Shown: in pieces, positions 1-8,662 of the stretch | Numbering within the stretch: the stretch's first letter is position 1 | Layout of the letters: each line of letters begins with the position of its first letter | Sequence record: NC_031937.1 | DNA: 38,979 nucleotides | DNA from: Escherichia phage LM33_P1 | Strand: one strand, 5' to 3' | The notes under the pieces: model-generated | What the model saw: only the letters and a program-made list of their open reading frames with translations | Told to the model about the DNA's origin: nothing | The model's database searches: none | Translations under genes and position numbers: made by a program

Positions 1-202
1 TTCAAGAACCTCAAGTCTCCCCATAGGCCCTCTTTCAGTCCAGACCAAAGGCCCTACCCGTTACTGCTCCTTGCAGTCACAGCCAGTCTATCATAAGGTT
101 GGACAGATGGTCAAGACTTAAGGTCAACGATAGGCTGAGGCTATGGCTTAGGGAAGGACGATAGGTTGGGACTATTGGTCTTCTTTGAGTCTCTATCTGT
201 AT

Positions 203-325
203 AACCATAAGTCACAACCATAGGTCACAGCCTACCTCTCACAACCATAAGTCATAACCTACAGTCTCACTAACCTACAGTCTCAACCATAAGACACCAA
301 CACCTACAGTCATAGACCTACAGTT
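203..325. repeat. Left-end array of short direct repeats (ACCATAAG x3-4 and CCTACAGT x4)
   Basis: Motifs recur at 10-40 nt spacing, read directly; position analogous to the short repeat arrays next to the terminal repeat in T7. Confidence 0.6.
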
Positions 326-435
326 AATAGACACAAGGCTATAGACTTAAGGTCTAAGACATGTTAGTCAAAGACTATATCCTCTTACACCATGGGGCCG
401 ACGATAGCTTAATCAATATTATTTCAAATTACCTA

Positions 436-470
436 TTGACTATAGGTCCAGACTATGGCCTAATAGCTTC
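436..470 (+). promoter_or_regulatory. Candidate host sigma70 early promoter (TTGACT -35, weak -10 CCTAAT/TAATAG, AT-rich upstream)
   Basis: TTGACT hexamer with 17-19 nt spacer to a -10-like hexamer; resembles T7 A1 layout. Confidence 0.35.
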
Positions 471-575
471 CGTCAACACGACACGGCAACAACCGGATAG
501 TGAAGACGCCGGTCCGGTCCGGTTAAGTAGTCAGCCTGTAAGACATACGAACAACAGGCAACCGACAGAAAGTAG

Positions 576-613
576 TTGACAGGCAGTAACGACTTAAAGT
601 AATATGTACCACA
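576..613 (+). promoter_or_regulatory. Host sigma70 early promoter (TTGACA - 18 nt - TAATAT), T7 A3-like
   Basis: Near-consensus -35 and -10 hexamers; downstream GTACCACAT..GAAAC resembles T7 A3 initiation region. Confidence 0.6.
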
Positions 614-727
614 TCGAAACAACGGTGATGACCAACACTGAATGGTCTACCTGAAGTCCTCTGACTGAAGGGAATGCTCTTTAACAATCTGGATAAACTC
701 TTAATGTGCGCCGATAGCGACTAACTA

Positions 728-775
728 CAGGGCCTTTGAGTCTACATCTGAAGGCCCTGACTGATAGTCACTAAC
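728..775 (+). promoter_or_regulatory. RNase III-type processing hairpin (CAGGGCCTT/AAGGCCCTG) plus conserved box ACTGATAGTCACTAAC
   Basis: 9-bp perfect inverted repeat followed by box that recurs at 1045-1092 and 1775-1820. Confidence 0.5.
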
Positions 776-782
776 TTAAAGG

Positions 783-1037
783 ATGGACACTATGAAACAC
801 TTAAGCACAATCACTAATCGCAATGAAGTATTCGTGAACACTAAAGGTTATGCGTGGATTCAGCTTAAAGAGATGACAGGAGCGCGTCACCGTGTGGTAG
901 TGCGCAAGGTATCAAGCAAGCAGTTCAGCAACTACAGCGTCGATACTGTGCGTATAGACAACGAGACATACCTGATAGACTCGCAGATAACCGTGAGTCC
1001 TACAGTGGGCGTCTCAGCTCCTTATTTCGCTAACTGA
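783..1037 (+). CDS. Hypothetical early protein (84 aa)
   Basis: ORF in early region, ATG preceded by AAAGGA, flanked by processing-site boxes; no recognised homolog. Confidence 0.55.
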   Translation: MDTMKHLSTITNRNEVFVNTKGYAWIQLKEMTGARHRVVVRKVSSKQFSNYSVDTVRIDNETYLIDSQITVSPTVGVSAPYFAN

Positions 1038-1044
1038 GAGTGAT

Positions 1045-1092
1045 TAACTACAGGTCGTTAGACTGATAGCGGCCTGACTGATAGTCACTAAC
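1045..1092 (+). promoter_or_regulatory. RNase III-type processing hairpin (CAGGTC/GGCCTG with G-U) plus box GACTGATAGTCACTAAC
   Basis: Second copy of conserved early intergenic box. Confidence 0.5.
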
Positions 1093-1120
1093 ACATAATT
1101 AACTTTGAGAGGATATAACT

Positions 1121-1624
1121 ATGGAACGTAATGCTAACGCATACTATGAGCTGCTGGCTGCAACCGTTGAGGCATTTATCGAGCGTATTCAGTACGACCA
1201 CCTGACTCAAGATGACGACTACAGCGCTGCGCTGCATGAGGTCGTAGACGGTCAGGTTCCACACTATTACCACGAGATTTTTACGGTGATGGCTGCTGAT
1301 GGTATAGACAACGAGTTCGAAGACTCTGGGATGATACCTGAAACCAAGGACGTAACGCGTATCCTACAAGCTCGCATCTATGAGGCACTTTATAACGACG
1401 TGTCTAATAGCTTGGATGTAGTCTGGTTTGAGGATGAAGAGGCAGACGAAGAGGATGAATATTGGGTAGTTGACGCTAAAACAGGCGCAATAATTGTGCA
1501 AGCTGTAGCTCTTGAGGTCGCTACTGCATGTGCCAAGGTCAACTATGTGATAGGTCGCCACCTTCAGGTGGAAGACATCAATGATAACGTAGTGTTTGAC
1601 CCTGCTGCTGAGGACTGCGAGTGA
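1121..1624 (+). CDS. ocr: Ocr-like anti-restriction DNA-mimic protein (T7 gene 0.3 homolog) with C-terminal extension
   Basis: Clear similarity to T7 Ocr (VPHYY..IF.VMA..GID.EFEDSG..P.TKDV.RILQARIYE); strongly acidic; RBS GAGAGG; 167 aa versus 117 aa in T7. Confidence 0.88.
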   Translation: MERNANAYYELLAATVEAFIERIQYDHLTQDDDYSAALHEVVDGQVPHYYHEIFTVMAADGIDNEFEDSGMIPETKDVTRILQARIYEALYNDVSNSLDVVWFEDEEADEEDEYWVVDAKTGAIIVQAVALEVATACAKVNYVIGRHLQVEDINDNVVFDPAAEDCE

Positions 1625-1774
1625 TGGTAACTTATGGCCTCTGCCAGCACCACGTCACTAACGCCCGGCTTATGGTCAAGACCGGGCAGTTAGACCACGA
1701 TTGGGCTATGCGTCTCTTGAAAGTGGTCTACAGGAGACGCAAGCGTATACACGACAGTTTACACGCTAAGTGAC

Positions 1775-1820
1775 AGACTACAGGTCATCAATGCTGGTGG
1801 CCTGACTGATAGTCATTAAC
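1775..1820 (+). promoter_or_regulatory. RNase III-type processing hairpin plus box GGCCTGACTGATAGTCATTAAC
   Basis: Third copy of conserved early intergenic box. Confidence 0.5.
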
Positions 1821-1836
1821 AACTGAGAGGGAAGAT

Positions 1837-2064
1837 ATGAACACAATCACTGGTGCCATAACCAAAGGTTTTCGAGCAATTTTCGGTGAAACGCAAGAAG
1901 TATGCACCAATCATAAATTCGTACTTTCTTGCGTAGCAGGTGACGAGTTTGACGGGTTCGATAAACTGGTGGTTTGCGACCATTGCGGACAAGAGGCTAT
2001 CCAACACTCAAACGGTAAATTTGAATTAATAGACGATAGCCTTACAGAAGGAGACGGCGAGTAA
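1837..2064 (+). CDS. Hypothetical early protein (75 aa) with Cys/His cluster (C..H...C...CDHC)
   Basis: ORF with RBS GAGAGGGAAG; possible small zinc-binding protein. Confidence 0.55.
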   Translation: MNTITGAITKGFRAIFGETQEVCTNHKFVLSCVAGDEFDGFDKLVVCDHCGQEAIQHSNGKFELIDDSLTEGDGE

Positions 2065-2137
2065 CCTAAATAAACAGGAGAGAACCAAATCATAGCTTGA
2101 CCATAACACTGACGTGATGGTACTGAGTGATAGACGA

Positions 2138-2166
2138 GAGGTCATCGACTGATAGGTGGCCTCAAA
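2138..2166 (+). promoter_or_regulatory. RNase III-type hairpin (GAGGTCA/TGGCCTC) with GACTGATAG loop
   Basis: Inverted repeat with G-U wobble, shares loop motif with the other early boxes. Confidence 0.4.
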
Positions 2167-2196
2167 GATTACCACTTACATTGATAGGAGTTAACT

Positions 2197-2301
2197 ATGA
2201 GCACTGCAATCATCTGGACTATCTCAGGCTTCGTAGCGTGGGGAATGTTTACTCTAGTCTGCAAACTACCGGTCCTTACTCAACTGTTATGGGGCTTATG
2301 A
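2197..2301 (+). CDS. Small hydrophobic early peptide (34 aa)
   Basis: ATG preceded by GATAGGAG; hydrophobic sequence MSTAIIWTISGFVAWGMFTLVCKLPVLTQLLWGL; below the ORF-track size cutoff. Confidence 0.35.
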   Translation: MSTAIIWTISGFVAWGMFTLVCKLPVLTQLLWGL

Positions 2302-2501
2302 CTATGAGTATCGCACTATTGATAGCCATAGGCTATGGACTTATCGCCTACGTGCTGGTGAGAGACATCAACAAAGCGCGTAAAGTCTACAAATTCAAAT
2401 ATGTACGTCTGGGTAGCTGGACTGTACGTCAACCTAACGGACGATTCATGCGTAACTTAGCGAACGTCTGGGATATAGCAACACTTGGGAGCAAACTGTA
2501 A
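2289..2501 (+). CDS. Small membrane protein (about 70 aa, one predicted TM helix)
   Basis: Internal ATG of track ORF 2127..2501; the upstream part of that ORF overlaps a hairpin site so the 2127 start is unlikely. Confidence 0.4.
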   Translation: MGLMTMSIALLIAIGYGLIAYVLVRDINKARKVYKFKYVRLGSWTVRQPNGRFMRNLANVWDIATLGSKL

Positions 2502-2827
2502 TGAACAAGTCATACGGGATTAATCTGGTACACTCTATGGACGCAGACATGCAAATGTTAAGCCTACTGGCTACCGGGTATCGTCACGGAACGTCAAGTC
2601 ACTCCGCACGTCAACAGCAGGAGCGGGACCGGGTACTGCAAGCAAGACTCCGGGCTGAGGGCCATAAGTCCGAACTAATGTGTCTGGTGTATGGTGGACG
2701 ACCAATCACTGACGATGGTAAACTTTTAGTCTCAGGCTGGAAGGCGATAGACCAACGGTCAACCATCAAGCACACGACTCATGGTGACTTCAGTCATCTC
2801 CACGCTAACCCGCTGATATGCAAGTAA
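2501..2827 (+). CDS. Hypothetical early protein (108 aa) at the position T7 gives to the 0.7 kinase
   Basis: ORF with ATG overlapping upstream stop (TAATG); no kinase motifs recognised. Confidence 0.55.
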   Translation: MNKSYGINLVHSMDADMQMLSLLATGYRHGTSSHSARQQQERDRVLQARLRAEGHKSELMCLVYGGRPITDDGKLLVSGWKAIDQRSTIKHTTHGDFSHLHANPLICK

Positions 2828-2832
2828 TTCTG

Positions 2833-2855
2833 ACTTAACTATCACTATAGGACTC
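2833..2855 (+). promoter_or_regulatory. Phage RNAP promoter variant (TTAACTATCACTATAGGAC) directly upstream of gene 1
   Basis: Matches the 11-member promoter family in this genome. Confidence 0.6.
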
Positions 2856-2924
2856 AAGGTCTAAGACTCCAAGTGAAAGACCAAAGAGACTTTAAGTGAA
2901 AGACTAATAACAAGGACTTTAAGT

Positions 2925-4892
2925 ATGAGCGTCATCTCTATTGACAAGCACGACTTCTCTGATGTGTCGAACGCCATTGAGCCGTTTAACCTACTGGCTG
3001 ACCACTACGGGCAAGACATTGCAGTCAAACAGCTTCAGCTTGAGCACGAGGCATACACTGAAGGCGAGCGACGTTTCATCAAGAACCTTGAGAGACAGAC
3101 TGAGCGAGGGGAACTGGCAGACAATCAGGTCGCCAAGCCTTTGATGCAGACTCTGGTCCCTAAGATTGCGCAAGCCGTCAAGGAGTGGCATGAAGGTCCA
3201 GACGGGAAGCTGTCAACCTCTCGTCCGAGCGTAGCGTTCACCATGTTGAGCACTGAAGAGAAGGCCGTAAAGGTCCGCTCTTTGCGCATCTCCTGCGAGT
3301 CTGCTGCGGTTATCATATTGAAGGTCATACTCTCCAAGCTGGTCAAGCCTGAAGGGATACCGATTACACCGATGGCCTCAGCGATAGGTCGCACACTTGA
3401 GGACGAAATCCGCTTCGGTCGCATCCGTGACAAGGAGAAAGAGCACTTCAAGAAGGCGATAGCTGATAACCTGAATAAGCGGGCCGGGGCGTCCTACAAG
3501 AAAGCCTACATGCAAGCGGTCGAGGCATCCATGCTGGAGCAAGGCCAACTGGAAGATGCGTGGGGGACTTGGAGTCCGACCGAGGCTGTCCACGTTGGAA
3601 TCAAGATGCTGGAGATTGTCATCCAGTCCACACAACTGGTCGAGCTTAAGCGTTACGGTGCTGGCAATGCAGCGGCTGACGTTGAGATGGTCCACCTGTC
3701 AGACTTCTGGGTCAAGAAGATGGCACAACGAGGATTCAGCCTTGCGGGTATAGCTCCAGTCTACCAGCCTTGCGTCGTTCCACCTAAGCCGTGGACTGGT
3801 GTCGTAGGCGGTGGGTACTGGGCCAAAGGACGCAGACCATTACCACTGATTCGCTTAGGGTCTAAGTCTGCGGTAGCACGCTACGAAGACGTGTATATGC
3901 CTGAAGTCTATGACGCTGTGAACATCATTCAGAATACACCTTGGAAAGTGAACAAGAAGGTTCTGGAAGTGGTGAACATGGTCGAGAAGCTGAACAACAC
4001 GCCTATTGATGACATCCCTCAGATGGAACCGCTGAAGCCTGAGGACTATGCGGGTGAGACTGAAGAAGAACTCAAGGCATGGAAGAAGGCTGCTGCTGGT
4101 ATCTATCGCCGCGAGAAGGCCAGACAGTCACGAAGATTGTCACTGAGCTTTATCGTCAACCAAGCGAACAAGTTCTCTCAGTTCAAGGCCATCTGGTTCC
4201 CGTATAACATGGACTGGCGCGGTCGCGTCTACGCTGTGCCGATGTTCAACCCTCAGGGTAACGACATGCAAAAGGGTCTTCTGACTCTGGCAGTCGGTAA
4301 GCCTATTGGTGCTGATGGTTTCAAATGGCTGAAGGTCCACGGTGCAAACTGCGCGGGTGTCGATAAAGTCACCTTCGAGGAGCGTATCAAGTGGGTGGAA
4401 GATAACCACGACAACATCATGGCTGCTGCCAAGGCACCGATGGATAGCATTGAGTGGTGGGGCAAGTTAGACTCTCCGTTCTGCTTCCTAGCGTTCTGCT
4501 TCGAGTATGCTGGCGTAATGCACCACGGCTTGTCTTACTCCTGCTCGCTGCCGATAGCGTTCGATGGGTCCTGCTCTGGGATTCAGCACTTCAGCGCTAT
4601 GCTTCGCGACCACATCGGTGGACATGCAGTAAACCTGACGCCATCCGGTAAGGTCCAAGACATCTACCGCATCGTGTCTGACCGCATTGAGGAGGAGCTT
4701 AAAGTCCTACTGGTTAACGGTACGGACAACGAGATGGTAACTCACGAGGACAAGAAAACTGGTGAGATTACCGAGCGTCTCAAGCTGGGGACACGAGAGC
4801 TTGCCCGTCAGTGGCTGACCTACGGTATGTCACGAAAGGTCACTAAGCGTTCGGTCATGACTCTGGCCTACGGGTCGAAAGAGTACGGCTGA
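2925..4892 (+). CDS. 1: T7-like single-subunit DNA-directed RNA polymerase, N-terminal 655 codons, ends at in-frame TGA
   Basis: Collinear similarity to T7 RNAP; ORF terminates ...MTLAYGSKEYG* where T7 continues ...GSKEFGFRQQ. Confidence 0.9.
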   Translation: MSVISIDKHDFSDVSNAIEPFNLLADHYGQDIAVKQLQLEHEAYTEGERRFIKNLERQTERGELADNQVAKPLMQTLVPKIAQAVKEWHEGPDGKLSTSRPSVAFTMLSTEEKAVKVRSLRISCESAAVIILKVILSKLVKPEGIPITPMASAIGRTLEDEIRFGRIRDKEKEHFKKAIADNLNKRAGASYKKAYMQAVEASMLEQGQLEDAWGTWSPTEAVHVGIKMLEIVIQSTQLVELKRYGAGNAAADVEMVHLSDFWVKKMAQRGFSLAGIAPVYQPCVVPPKPWTGVVGGGYWAKGRRPLPLIRLGSKSAVARYEDVYMPEVYDAVNIIQNTPWKVNKKVLEVVNMVEKLNNTPIDDIPQMEPLKPEDYAGETEEELKAWKKAAAGIYRREKARQSRRLSLSFIVNQANKFSQFKAIWFPYNMDWRGRVYAVPMFNPQGNDMQKGLLTLAVGKPIGADGFKWLKVHGANCAGVDKVTFEERIKWVEDNHDNIMAAAKAPMDSIEWWGKLDSPFCFLAFCFEYAGVMHHGLSYSCSLPIAFDGSCSGIQHFSAMLRDHIGGHAVNLTPSGKVQDIYRIVSDRIEEELKVLLVNGTDNEMVTHEDKKTGEITERLKLGTRELARQWLTYGMSRKVTKRSVMTLAYGSKEYG

Positions 4893-4926
4893 GGACATCG
4901 TGATGCCAGGGACATCGTGATGCCAG
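4893..4926 (+). repeat. Perfect 17-nt tandem direct repeat (GGACATCGTGATGCCAG x2) inside the RNAP gene
   Basis: Read directly; lies immediately 3' of the in-frame TGA (4890-4892). Confidence 0.9.
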
Positions 4927-5606
4927 CGATTGACTCAGGGTCTGGCGCTATGTTCACTGAACCAAGCCAAGCATCTCGCTTCATGGCTAAGATGATTTGG
5001 GAAGCTGTGAGTGTGACCGTAGTTGCTGCGGTTGACGCGATGAAATGGCTTCAGGGTGCTGCCAAGCTGCTTGCTGCTGAAGTGAAGGACAAGAAGACTG
5101 GAGAAATCCTGAAGCCTTGTCTTCCGGTACACTGGGTCACACCTGATGGTTTCCCTGTCTGGCAGGAATACCGCAAGAAGGACACCACTCGTCTGAACCT
5201 GATGTTCTTAGGGTCATTCAACCTTCAGCCTACCGTCAACAAAGGCACGAAGAAAGAGCTGGACAAGCACAAGCAGGAGTCAGGCATTAGCCCGAACTTC
5301 GTCCACTCACAAGATGGTAGCCACCTCCGCAAGACTGTAGTCCACACGCACCGCAAATATGGCGTGATGTCATTCGCAGTGATTCACGATAGCTTCGGGA
5401 CCATCCCGGCTGACGCTGAGTATCTGTTCCGTGGAGTCCGTGAGACGATGGTCGAGACCTACCGCGACAACGATGTGCTGCTTGACTTCTACGAGCAGTT
5501 TGAATACCAGCTTCACGAGAGCCAGAGAGACAAGTTGCCTGAGCTTCCGAAGAAAGGTAAACTGAATATCGAAGACATCTTGTCTTCAGACTTTGCATTC
5601 GCTTAA
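4917..5606 (+). CDS. 1: T7-like RNA polymerase, C-terminal 229 codons (same frame as N-terminal part)
   Basis: Similarity to T7 RNAP C-terminus through ...HDSFGTIPADA... to terminal FAFA; same frame as 2925..4892, separated by TGA plus 8 codons. Confidence 0.88.
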   Translation: MMPAIDSGSGAMFTEPSQASRFMAKMIWEAVSVTVVAAVDAMKWLQGAAKLLAAEVKDKKTGEILKPCLPVHWVTPDGFPVWQEYRKKDTTRLNLMFLGSFNLQPTVNKGTKKELDKHKQESGISPNFVHSQDGSHLRKTVVHTHRKYGVMSFAVIHDSFGTIPADAEYLFRGVRETMVETYRDNDVLLDFYEQFEYQLHESQRDKLPELPKKGKLNIEDILSSDFAFA

Positions 5607-5621
5607 CAACAGGAGAAGTAT

Positions 5622-5852
5622 ATGTCAATGAAACTTGTAGCACACAACAGGGTATTCAACGATGGGTCGGGACGTTGCCATGTAGAGCTGACTTATAAGG
5701 ATTTAATCATTCTCCGAGACAGATTACAGTCGGGTGTGACTGGGTGGATTCAACCTAACGAGTACAACCTTATAGCTTCGATTGATGAAGTTCTTAACGC
5801 GTGGATGGAAGACGAGCGCATTCAGTATCCGTCATTCCCTCTAATTAGATAA
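5622..5852 (+). CDS. Hypothetical protein (76 aa)
   Basis: ORF with RBS AGGAG immediately after gene 1; no T7 counterpart recognised. Confidence 0.55.
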   Translation: MSMKLVAHNRVFNDGSGRCHVELTYKDLIILRDRLQSGVTGWIQPNEYNLIASIDEVLNAWMEDERIQYPSFPLIR

Positions 5853-5862
5853 GGAGAGAGTT

Positions 5863-6078
5863 ATGAAATTTGCACACAAGCATACTGGCGTTAATGGTGG
5901 GACTCAAATCGTGACCGTAACAGAACACAACGGCAAGGGTCTGGTGAAGACCACGGTCATCCCTACCGAGATGTCCAAGCAGCTTAACATCCCGTTCAAG
6001 ACTCTTGTATATCTGGTCGAGTCCAGCCACGAGAAGTACCTGAAGGACGCAGTGTCCAAGCTGGAGCAGGCCAAATGA
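5863..6078 (+). CDS. Hypothetical protein (71 aa)
   Basis: ORF with strong RBS TAAGGAGAG. Confidence 0.6.
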   Translation: MKFAHKHTGVNGGTQIVTVTEHNGKGLVKTTVIPTEMSKQLNIPFKTLVYLVESSHEKYLKDAVSKLEQAK

Positions 6079-6153
6079 CAGACATACAGTTACTGGCCTT
6101 GTGGCTGGGAGCACTCGCAGTATTCACTTTAATCCAACGCAGAAGAGGTTAAC

Positions 6154-6176
6154 CCTAAACTATCACTATAGGATTA
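6154..6176 (+). promoter_or_regulatory. Phage RNAP promoter (CTAAACTATCACTATAGGATT)
   Basis: Consensus match; position equivalent to T7 phi1.1. Confidence 0.7.
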
Positions 6177-6215
6177 GACTCAAGGTCATGACTCAAAGTC
6201 GTGGCCTTCATGATT
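6177..6215 (+). promoter_or_regulatory. RNase III-type processing hairpin (AAGGTCA/TGGCCTT, G-U containing)
   Basis: Conserved box AGACTCAAGGTCAT...GTGGCCTTCATGATTA, also at 13110 and 35902. Confidence 0.5.
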
Positions 6216-6249
6216 AACCCTAAATAAACACTACTGGAGATTTAACCGT

Positions 6250-6429
6250 ATGTATCAGAACACTATCAACTTCGAGCGCATCCGTGAACGTCAGCAGACT
6301 GAAGGTTACATCCCTAAGGGCCGCAAGCTGAACAAGACTAAACGTGGAGGAGGTATCAAAGGTGCTTTCCGTAACGCTGAAGGTAAAGACTCTATGGTTA
6401 ACCAAGAGAAATACTTCGTAGGAGCATAA
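6250..6429 (+). CDS. 1.1: Gene 1.1-like small basic protein (59 aa)
   Basis: Similarity to T7 gp1.1 (..GRKLNKTKR..); position upstream of 1.2; below the ORF-track cutoff. Confidence 0.6.
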   Translation: MYQNTINFERIRERQQTEGYIPKGRKLNKTKRGGGIKGAFRNAEGKDSMVNQEKYFVGA

Positions 6430-6433
6430 CCAA

Positions 6434-6697
6434 ATGGGCAGACTTTATAGTGGCAACCTCAACGATTTCAAAGCAGCGTGTCACAGGCTTTATCAGTTAG
6501 ACTTCGCTGTCATATCTCAGGAGTTTCAAGACTATACGTCACGCCAAGAGTGTATGAAACTCAGGGTGGAGGACCGAGCTGGTAACATCTTCGCGCTTGA
6601 GACCTTCGCACACTACGATGAAGACGTGCTGTATAATACCGCAACCGACTACCTCAACGGTCTCGCTGACCATCTCGACACATGGAGCAAAGAATAA
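6434..6697 (+). CDS. 1.2: Gene 1.2 protein (host dGTPase inhibitor homolog)
   Basis: Strong similarity to T7 gp1.2 (MGRLYSGNL..FKAA....DEDVL). Confidence 0.85.
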   Translation: MGRLYSGNLNDFKAACHRLYQLDFAVISQEFQDYTSRQECMKLRVEDRAGNIFALETFAHYDEDVLYNTATDYLNGLADHLDTWSKE

Positions 6698-7785
6698 TGA
6701 CAACTATCAAAACTAACCCTCACCGCGCTGTAGATTACTCTGAGTCTGGAATTAAGAAGGCACTGGAAGCAGCCGGGTCTCTGGAAGCTGAAGTGAAGTA
6801 CGATGGTGTGCGCCTGAACCTCCTGGTCCTGCGTGAAGGTGAGACCTACTGGCTTAGCCGCGAGTCGAAACCTCTACCAGCCTTGGAGTGGATGAACTCT
6901 GAGTTAGGTAATGCGTGGACCCAAGCTGACTGGCGATGGTTCCTGCGTCAATCCGGCTACGAAGGTGTGGGCATGATGATTGATGGCGAGGTCATGGTCA
7001 AAGGTGTAGACTTCAACACCTCCTCAGGTCTCATCCGAACGAAGTGGCTCAAGCCTAACAACGAGGAGTTCGCTGAATACTATTCGCCGGCGACTGGTGG
7101 AAAGAAGCTCCCGTTCTGGGGATCCCGGTCACGACTTCAGGTTGTGGTCTACGGTGTCATCGACATGACAACCATTGCTGACCCGAAAGCCGAAGGTCCT
7201 ATCCATAGCGTCACACGCCTGAAGGCCGAAGCTATCGTCCCTCTCCTCCAGAAATACTTCCCGGAAATCGACTGGGTTCTGTCTGAGTCACACACGGTCT
7301 ATGACCTTGAGTCTCTCAACTCCCTGTACGAAGAGAAGCGTCTGGAAGGACACGAGGGTCTGGTAGTCAAGGACCCACTTGGTAAATACAAGCGCGGCAA
7401 GAAGTCAGGCATGTGGAAAATGAAGCCGGAGGACACCATTGATGGGACCGTGTGTGGACTCGTGTGGGGGACTCCTGGTAAGGCTAACGAAGGTAAGATC
7501 ATCGGCTTTGAGGTTCTACTGGAGGATGGCATGGTGGTCAACGCCTGCGGTCTGTCTGAAGAACAGAAGGACGGGTTTACGGCTAAGGTCAAGGAGGACA
7601 CGCTTGCTGCGGTTGGCATCTTTGCGCCGTACGGCATTGGTGGTAACGAACCTTGCTTCGATAACCCATACGAAGGCTGGCAGTGTGAAGTCCTCTTCAT
7701 GGAGAGGTTCCCTGATGGCTCCCTTCGTCACCCCAGCTTCAAGTGCTGGCGTGGAACCGAAGACAACCCAACGGTGAAGTCATGA
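6697..7785 (+). CDS. 1.3: ATP-dependent DNA ligase
   Basis: Similarity to T7 ligase including KYDGVR adenylation motif and C-terminal SLRHPSF..RGTEDNP; start taken at ATG overlapping the 1.2 stop (track ORF begins 6682). Confidence 0.9.
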   Translation: MTTIKTNPHRAVDYSESGIKKALEAAGSLEAEVKYDGVRLNLLVLREGETYWLSRESKPLPALEWMNSELGNAWTQADWRWFLRQSGYEGVGMMIDGEVMVKGVDFNTSSGLIRTKWLKPNNEEFAEYYSPATGGKKLPFWGSRSRLQVVVYGVIDMTTIADPKAEGPIHSVTRLKAEAIVPLLQKYFPEIDWVLSESHTVYDLESLNSLYEEKRLEGHEGLVVKDPLGKYKRGKKSGMWKMKPEDTIDGTVCGLVWGTPGKANEGKIIGFEVLLEDGMVVNACGLSEEQKDGFTAKVKEDTLAAVGIFAPYGIGGNEPCFDNPYEGWQCEVLFMERFPDGSLRHPSFKCWRGTEDNPTVKS

Positions 7786-7961
7786 GTACACAACTTTATA
7801 TCAACATAGCAAGTAGTCAACTCTACGCTGTGGTAAATGGCGAGCTGTGGTATCGTAAACTCAAGAAGTGGGCCAAGTCCTCCTACGATGAAGAGACAAT
7901 ATCAACCATGAGTCATCGCTACCGTAAGGCTGCTAAGGTGAACAACTTTAAGATGCGTTAA
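7782..7961 (+). CDS. Hypothetical small basic protein (59 aa)
   Basis: ATG overlapping ligase stop (ATGA); track ORF 7743..7961. Confidence 0.45.
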   Translation: MSTQLYINIASSQLYAVVNGELWYRKLKKWAKSSYDEETISTMSHRYRKAAKVNNFKMR

Positions 7962-7965
7962 CGTC

Positions 7966-7999
7966 AACCCAGTGGTCTTATGACTGCTGGGTTTCTTTG
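7966..7999 (+). terminator. Rho-independent terminator-like hairpin (AACCCAG/CTGGGTT) with U-tract; candidate early terminator TE
   Basis: 7-bp stem followed by TTTCTTTG, just upstream of a phage promoter. Confidence 0.5.
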
Positions 8000-8020
8000 C
8001 GTACGGGCCACCAGCTAGAC

Positions 8021-8043
8021 CCTAAGCTATCACTATAGGACAA
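8021..8043 (+). promoter_or_regulatory. Phage RNAP promoter (CCTAAGCTATCACTATAGGACAA)
   Basis: Consensus match. Confidence 0.7.
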
Positions 8044-8069
8044 CCCTAACCGACCAAAGGAGAAACCTT

Positions 8070-8324
8070 ATGTCTAAAAACTTAATGTTCAACCGATTTA
8101 CTCGAAGCTTCCACCTGTCGCATAGCCCATTCAGCTTCCATAAATCTAATCAACCATTACCCCGCTTTGGTAAGACAGTGGCTCTGTCTCCCACAGTTCA
8201 TGCGCTAGTCACCCGCAAGTCTATGCTGAAGGCTATGGATAAAGAACAAGTCGATGTACCTGTGGTCGTTACAAAATGGCCTCGCATTAAGCTGGCCCTT
8301 CTGGTAATTAAGGAAGTGTTTTGA
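8070..8324 (+). CDS. Gene 1.6-like protein
   Basis: C-terminal similarity to T7 gp1.6 (..RIKEVF) as recalled; RBS AAAGGAGAAA. Confidence 0.55.
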   Translation: MSKNLMFNRFTRSFHLSHSPFSFHKSNQPLPRFGKTVALSPTVHALVTRKSMLKAMDKEQVDVPVVVTKWPRIKLALLVIKEVF

Positions 8325-8662
8325 TGGCATATTGTGATAGCACCACATACTGTGAAGCATGTAATGGTGATGACCGCTTCCCACACGTTGGTAAACTTGT
8401 AGGTAACAAGCTGCAAGAAATTGATGGTGTACGCAAGCCATCCCACTATCAGGTCTTTGATGGCGTGGAATCCATTGAGATTATCGCACGGTCAATGACT
8501 GTGAGTGAGTTCCGTGGGTTCTGCATGGGTAACGTCCTGAAGTATCGACTCCGGGCTGGTAAGAAGTCAGAGCTGGCAACTATGGAGAAGGACCTGAACA
8601 AAGCAGCCTTCTATCAGGAGCTGTTCGACCTGCATAAAGGTAAGTGCTATGCTTCCGAGTGA
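8324..8662 (+). CDS. Gene 1.7-like protein (nucleotide kinase family, short form)
   Basis: C-terminal similarity to T7 gp1.7 (KPSHY..F...E.IE.IARSMTV..F.G.C.GN.LKYRLRAGKKSEL) as recalled; 113 aa versus about 196 in T7. Confidence 0.6.
   Translation: MAYCDSTTYCEACNGDDRFPHVGKLVGNKLQEIDGVRKPSHYQVFDGVESIEIIARSMTVSEFRGFCMGNVLKYRLRAGKKSELATMEKDLNKAAFYQELFDLHKGKCYASE

Follow-up and report, generated by a model that had tools for sequence, protein, structure and literature searches.

A predicted, conserved C-terminal domain extends the Ocr-like gp0.3 of Escherichia phage LM33_P1

What does an Ocr protein gain from some 50 additional residues behind its acidic tail? This question was raised by gene 0.3 of Escherichia phage LM33_P1 (NC_031937.1), located at positions 1121-1624 of a 38,979-nucleotide stretch, the whole of which is referred to here as the window. 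Ocr is the textbook DNA mimic, and research on it has focused on type I restriction-modification (R-M), bacteriophage exclusion (BREX), inhibition of RNA polymerase and triggering of the phage anti-restriction-induced system (PARIS). To our knowledge, all mechanistic work on Ocr used the 117-amino acid (aa) protein of phage T7. A prediction made from the sequence alone had described the LM33_P1 protein as an Ocr-like DNA mimic with an added C-terminal domain that has no counterpart in T7 Ocr, and Pfam, a PDB profile, sequence alignment and a model of the domain all agreed with this description. The open reading frame (ORF) encoded exactly the 167-aa sequence on which the prediction was based. 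Its product was 100% identical to that encoded by the unannotated Kayfunavirus LM33P1 record OZ035813.1, which was 99.8% identical to the first 5 kb of the window with a shifted start point (window 1-5000 corresponding to 3377-8376 of OZ035813.1). Many K1F-like coliphages were 91-99% identical to the same 5 kb.

The N-terminal part of the protein matched the Ocr family by all approaches used. Residues 8-94 matched Pfam PF08684 'DNA mimic ocr' (E 5.2e-28, 97.9 bits, cut-off 25), and a family profile built from 120 homologues matched the solved T7 Ocr chains 1s7z and 2y7c (E 1.6e-33, positions 5-111). The alignment with T7 Ocr expected for this part was recovered with 47% identity overall and no gaps across the first 100 columns. 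F54, a residue tied to dimerisation of T7 Ocr and to PARIS escape (PMC9122126), was kept in this alignment and invariant among the 120 homologues. The AlphaFold2 model of the full-length protein showed the Ocr helices, with the same helical core as T7 Ocr. An acidic surface was also found, the net charge being -16 over the 103 aa of the core and -9 over the 10 aa of the linker that follows it; T7 Ocr carries a net charge of -28 over 117 aa. Collectively, these sequence comparisons indicated that the gene 0.3 product is a member of the Ocr family displaying all the defining features that could be tested, and activity against type I R-M and BREX is predicted. A literature search found no paper on the activity of K1F-type gp0.3 against either system.

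Structure prediction of the extension gave a compact and confident beta-beta-alpha-beta-beta domain, hereafter the C-domain. In the full-length AlphaFold2 model this fold spanned residues 114-159 with a predicted local distance difference test score (pLDDT) of 84-88, and the C-domain modelled alone from 43 diverse sequences reached a pLDDT of 92.2 and a predicted template modelling score of 0.75. The pLDDT of the linker dropped below 50 at residues 107-109, and linker length varied from 3 to 21 aa across the 120 homologues; low confidence and variable length both fit two independently folding modules connected by a flexible tether. The ratio of nonsynonymous to synonymous substitutions (dN/dS; pooled Nei-Gojobori estimate, 17 Kayfunavirus genes) was 0.33 for the C-domain (dS 0.44), 0.17 for the core and 0.33 for the linker. 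The C-domain is under purifying selection, which is weaker than that acting on the core. Two blocks, YWVVD..TG and H..VEDINDNVVFDP, were near-invariant, and variation clustered in the helix and its adjoining loops (residues 132-146). The extension had been called non-acidic, which holds in so far as it is less acidic than the rest of the protein (charge per residue -0.10, compared with -0.17 for the core and -0.74 for the linker); it is nevertheless mildly negative, with a net charge of -3 in LM33_P1 and a median of -4 among the 120 homologues (range -9 to 0). Taken together, the models and the conservation describe the C-domain as a small, well-folded and conserved 48-residue module that is predicted to fold independently.

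The long form of Ocr proved to be widespread. A tblastn search with the last 54 residues matched 69 phage records at 68-100% identity, and the annotated matches among those listed all fell under gp0.3 or 'Ocr' genes or mislabelled equivalents. Several database records label the long form 'protein kinase' (ZH4, CY1, IME177). A search of 5.8 billion proteins returned 489 Ocr relatives, the best 120 clusters of which (90% identity) were all long forms of 162-179 aa. Because the long frame was intact in the 69 phage records and in at least 120 clusters, a sequencing error concealing a true stop near residue 117, which the original prediction had named as a possible refutation, is excluded. About 79 of the 571 phage records with an Ocr homologue carried the long form, whereas most of the 571 matched residues 1 to ~97 only, including T7, K1E, K1-5, KP32 and other Klebsiella phages. 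This distribution and the dN/dS value also argue against an extension that is functionless in all relatives. The long form is the standard gp0.3 of phage K1F and of many Kayfunavirus genomes, and is neither rare nor new to databases; in a Hafnia phage, a 169-aa protein was simply called 'DNA mimic ocr' (PMC8861465).

More distant versions of the C-domain were also attached to Ocr. A divergent type (QWYVINDEESGPHVVAYYDSLEAAIEAANERYNTLGKLCHVEDD...VLYNP), following an Ocr core conserved at 80%, was encoded by Stenotrophomonas phage IME15, by several Aeromonas phages and by Escherichia phage Ebrios, a member of Teseptimavirus, the genus of T7 itself. A third type was found fused to Ocr in Kosakonia phage Kc166A, and two proteins (P0115 and P0119) represented further variants. 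Residues V116, A134, G145, V150, E151 and P161 were invariant across the divergent types, which had a common secondary-structure pattern and were ~30% identical to each other. Profile comparison supported homology between types with an hhalign E value of 9e-4 and a probability of 23%, a weak result when taken alone. The identical position on Ocr and the shared pattern make a common origin of these C-domain types likely. A T7-like genome of 37,555 bp (IMGVR_UViG_638277131; L057, 906-1328) encoded a 140-aa Ocr homologue whose C-terminus is unrelated and non-acidic, apparently the result of another fusion or of a deletion at the same permissive C-terminal position.

Long and short alleles coexisted within the genus. 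Kayfunavirus phage vB_EcoP_F encoded a 114-aa Ocr (AQT25404), and several IMG/VR contigs encoded proteins of 110-114 aa. Within the phage collection to which LM33P1 belongs, T147P5, CLBP1, PDP351P3, MT1B1P3 and LI10P1 carried the long allele like LM33P1, and BDX03P1 and AN24P4 the short one. DNA alignment showed that the vB_EcoP_F allele differs from the long allele by the absence of 159 nt between two GAGGA repeats, with the frame kept. In the window, the left repeat lies inside the linker (1451-1455) and the right one inside the tail (1610-1614), where it also occupies the position expected for the ribosome-binding site of the next gene. Short proteins end in ...DEEDCE and long ones in ...DEEDE[YWVV...DPAA]EDCE. 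The prediction of about 50 extra residues beyond the acidic tail was therefore borne out, but their description as purely terminal was not: relative to the short alleles they form an internal, in-frame block of 53 codons, and the terminal ...EDCE is common to both forms. No early-region gene specific to the short-allele phages was found that might compensate for the missing block. One family restricted to short-allele loci was discarded because, by its coordinates only, it appeared to be an ORF read out of frame over the deletion junction.

Damaged versions of the C-domain were also observed. The Ocr of Salmonella phage PRF-SP7 (L004, 1501-1884) consisted of a T7-like core and tail region followed only by the last strand and tail of a K1F-type C-domain (...DSVVFDHAAAEDCE), and this remnant clearly resembled the K1F 3' end at the nucleotide level. 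The similarity suggests that the C-domain was truncated in that lineage by deletion or recombination. Other variants, natural or due to assembly, also disrupted the long form. In three related sequencing runs (L005 2667-3180, L006 and L007), a +1 frameshift (GGG to GGGG) split a 117-aa Ocr from a 59-aa C-domain ORF; another locus (L076) had a frameshift within the C-domain, and in protein P0099 a deletion fused the C-domain to the end of gp0.35. The many losses, the PRF-SP7 remnant and the frameshifted or fused variants in assemblies are what would be expected if the C-domain had no function, whether it is carried along neutrally, is decaying or reflects an error of sequencing or annotation. 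The frame was nevertheless intact across more than 100 independent sequences, a dN/dS of 0.33 was obtained at a dS of ~0.44, the predicted fold was of high confidence, and the pattern of the C-domain was conserved across types sharing only ~30% identity. The cluster count, the fold prediction and the dN/dS value largely refute an absence of function, which we regard as most improbable.

The C-domain was not found as a standalone protein or fused to another partner in protein, phage, plasmid, GTDB or metagenome collections, with the exception of genes split by frameshifts. A profile search of the 5.8 billion proteins returned only two sequences outside Ocr fusions: P0123, which is the product of the +1 frameshift in the three related runs, and P0124, a 41-aa fragment of the C-domain. 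A phmmer search of 1.84 billion representatives gave two matches, both to long repeat proteins with summed weak scores, which were rejected as false positives. GTDB genomes contained no C-domain match, plasmids contained one at noise level only, and metagenome contigs added three Ocr fusions. No paralogue of the C-domain was detected within the window by tblastn.

Searches for relatives that could point to a function gave no significant match. The C-domain alone had no match in Pfam, PHROGs or NCBIfam. When the 43 members were compared with Pfam, Kelch appeared as sub-threshold noise only, and 4 of the 43 matched PepSY (PF03413) below threshold (best E 0.0018), the window sequence not being among them; we suspect that these matches stem from a short shared motif such as DAKTG. 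Foldseek found nothing at E ≤0.001 in PDB or BFVD, with E values above 1 against PDB and of at least 0.05 against BFVD, where the best matches were small uncharacterised phage proteins. These scores are those of a generic small alpha/beta unit, and no homology was drawn from them. A partial match to the ClpS and ribosomal L7-L12 C-terminal fold was rejected, the full ~80-residue alpha/beta fold and its sequence signature being absent. T4 Dmd and AcrIF9, small phage inhibitors of similar fold, and the ClpS/L7-L12 fold were 6-23% identical to the C-domain, with no evidence of homology or shared function. The C-domain could be an autonomous second inhibitor, a small anti-defence or host-takeover protein like T4 Dmd or the anti-CRISPRs, with a target unrelated to those of Ocr and fused to it merely for very early and abundant expression. 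We consider this unlikely: the searches revealed neither a separate gene for the C-domain nor another fusion partner, and the structural scores were at the noise level for a 55-residue alpha/beta unit, with 6% identity to T4 Dmd.

The occurrence of the C-domain only with Ocr favours a role in cis. We infer, with about even confidence, that it is a cis-acting protein-interaction accessory on the Ocr dimer, altering either the targets of the mimic or its recognition. We take the T7 protein (1S7Z) to dimerise via its centre, with a long last helix running outwards and the C-termini at the two distal tips; with this geometry, each dimer would carry one tethered C-domain at either end. Type I R-M and BREX would still be blocked by the acidic core. 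The C-domain could provide a further, non-DNA-like contact to a protein of the host or of a defence system, or change the recognition of Ocr. It may thus tune target range or recognition while being dispensable for basic anti-restriction, and would be conditionally useful rather than essential, short alleles persisting in the same genus. T7 Ocr lacking 7 or 17 C-terminal residues still inhibits EcoKI (PMC3439906). Tolerance of tail removal points to the C-terminus as a permissive attachment point and makes it unlikely that the C-domain is needed for basic mimicry.

Several observations weigh against an accessory role in cis. Repeated loss and the frameshifted variants indicate that the C-domain is dispensable in some settings, and a domain so often lost is not essential. 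No significant sequence or structural relative in Pfam, PHROGs, NCBIfam or Foldseek searches provided a functional clue. In addition, the restriction to Ocr rests on large-database searches of limited sensitivity for 55-aa queries, as illustrated by the IME15-type profile search, which returned no candidates despite the existing sequence, and clustering at 50% may hide C-domain copies.

The original prediction had suggested altered oligomerisation or a second defence target, both of which are speculative. Two more specific roles can be proposed. The C-domain could act against sensing, as a tip-mounted bulk or decoy that prevents capture by abortive-infection systems that sense Ocr, such as PARIS (AriA); side-on clamping by type I methylases and BrxX would be kept. 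PARIS is triggered by T7 Ocr, for which binding to pores of positive charge in the AriA hexamer has been proposed (PMC11464382), and PARIS systems occur in P4-like satellites of E. coli (PMC9122126). The C-domain is much less acidic than the core, and the coexistence of long and short alleles is that expected of a conditionally beneficial trait. If true, this would add a further layer to the arms race between restriction, anti-restriction and anti-anti-restriction, in the form of a cassette gained and lost between short repeats. Yet AriA is still recovered in pull-downs with T7 Ocr bearing a C-terminal Strep tag (PMC11464382), which indicates that C-terminal additions do not automatically block binding; F54, which is changed to valine in PARIS-escaping T7 (PMC9122126), was unaltered in LM33_P1; and the flexible linker may leave the core accessible. 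We judge protection from sensing to be quite improbable. Alternatively, the C-domain could lengthen the mimic or join Ocr dimers at their ends; the resulting longer pseudo-DNA would trap DNA enzymes that translocate or act at multiple sites. In agreement with this proposal, the C-domain follows the long C-terminal helix, contains a conserved acidic hairpin (V-E-D-I-N-D) and usually has a negative net charge. Against it, the charge density of the C-domain is below that of the core and linker, some members are neutral, and a flexible linker of 3-21 aa does not fit a fixed, phosphate-like geometry, so that lengthening of the mimic appears very improbable. The accessory on the Ocr dimer is the explanation that we favour.

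The features of the locus are listed in Table 1. Gene 0.3 precedes the RNA polymerase ORF (start at 2925) as an early gene, in the same order as in the K1F annotation. Its stop codon overlaps the ATG of gp0.35 (ATGA), which suggests that the two genes are probably translationally coupled. Homologues of gp0.35 carry the precomputed Pfam match PF26807 (Phage_T7_GP04), a match that the local Pfam copy did not report; the namesake of this family, T7 gp0.4, is presumably an FtsZ inhibitor. Repeated intergenic elements (AGTGATTAACTACAGGTC ... GGCCTGACTGATAGTCACTAAC) were found at 708-782, 1030-1100 and 1762-1828, and possibly at ~2126-2143, the first three preceding the genes that start at 783, 1121 and 1837. 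Each is predicted to form a stable hairpin with bulges (-20 to -26 kcal/mol, z -2.4 to -4.9), and they are candidate RNase III-type processing sites resembling those of the T7 early mRNA. If they are RNase III sites, processing would release a single unit comprising gene 0.3 and gp0.35.

Table 1 Features of the gene 0.3 locus of LM33_P1 (positions in the window)
Feature	Position	Strand	Evidence
Intergenic hairpin 5' of gene 0.3, conserved, one of three similar copies; processing-site candidate	1030..1100	+	Repeat families D2, D3; fold -23.8 kcal/mol, z -4.9
Shine-Dalgarno GAGAGGA, 7 nt 5' of the gene 0.3 ATG	1107..1113	+	Read from sequence
Gene 0.3, long-form Ocr-like protein, 167 aa + stop	1121..1624	+	Pfam ocr match; ATG start, TGA stop
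Ocr DNA-mimic core, residues 1-103	1121..1429	+	Pfam ocr; PDB 1s7z/2y7c; dN/dS 0.17
Poly-acidic flexible linker, residues 104-113 (EDEEADEEDE, net -9)	1430..1459	+	pLDDT, length variation, DNA alignment
Predicted accessory C-domain, residues 114-161 (YWVVD...VVFDP), beta-beta-alpha-beta-beta	1460..1603	+	AlphaFold2; dN/dS; invariant residues
Short acidic tail AAEDCE (residues 162-167) + TGA	1604..1624	+	Tail common to short alleles
gp0.35, 49 aa from ATG, T7 gp0.4 family	1624..1773	+	PHROG 5058, E 4e-25

Other observations were made in the early regions of LM33_P1 and its relatives. Upstream of the early region, positions 203-301 contained five tandem-like copies of a ~17-nt unit (AACCATAAGTCACAACC) with 13-29 nt spacing, an array reminiscent of those adjoining the terminal repeats of T7-group phages. 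The segment 1621-2925 contained only small ORFs, and no gene 0.7-type protein kinase was present between gene 0.3 and the RNA polymerase gene; this kinase was present in some relatives with a long-form Ocr, such as Klebsiella phage SAKp10309 (L080). In Ebrios (L087, 802-2025), a 151-aa gene annotated 'SAM-dependent methyltransferase' (SAM, S-adenosylmethionine) lies upstream of the long-form Ocr, at the position of a T3-like SAM hydrolase, and this phage may therefore combine two anti-restriction strategies.

An extra domain on a phage early protein is unsurprising in itself, and its interest here comes from the role of Ocr as a hub in the arms race involving R-M, BREX and PARIS. A close relative of the LM33_P1 protein, K1F gp0.3, has been sequenced since 2005. 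For the C-domain we found no family, solved structure or discussion in the literature; a literature search returned no description of it or of the long form, which genome papers simply call Ocr. A sizeable natural group of Ocr proteins therefore carries a selected, Ocr-exclusive domain that is apparently unexamined, and this group includes the therapeutic candidates LM33_P1, K1F and CLB_P1. Near-isogenic phages that naturally carry either a long or a short allele provide a ready-made experiment. If the C-domain changes which defences are blocked or triggered, it matters for the understanding of Ocr and for host-range prediction in therapeutic Kayfunavirus phages; should it have no measurable effect, it will be a minor annotation note.

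Compared with known systems, the LM33_P1 protein has in common with T7 Ocr (gp0.3, PDB 1S7Z) its homologous first ~103 residues, F54, the acidic surface and the position as first early gene upstream of the RNA polymerase. T7 Ocr, 117 aa long, terminates in a disordered acidic tail, whereas the LM33_P1 protein has a 48-aa domain, folded in the models, between the acidic stretch and its last few residues. The Ocr of vB_EcoP_F has a core 85% identical to that of LM33_P1, the same EDCE end and the same downstream gene, and differs by the absence of exactly the 53 codons between the GAGGA repeats. The same overall architecture is found in gp0.3 of K1F (YP_338090, 169 aa), with its core, acidic linker, C-domain and EDCE tail (81% identity overall, ~70% in the C-domain). 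This protein and other Kayfunavirus 'ocr-like anti-restriction' proteins differ from that of LM33_P1 in allele only, as in the helix of the C-domain, which reads ALEVATACAKVNY in the window and SLYEAIACAKELY in K1F.
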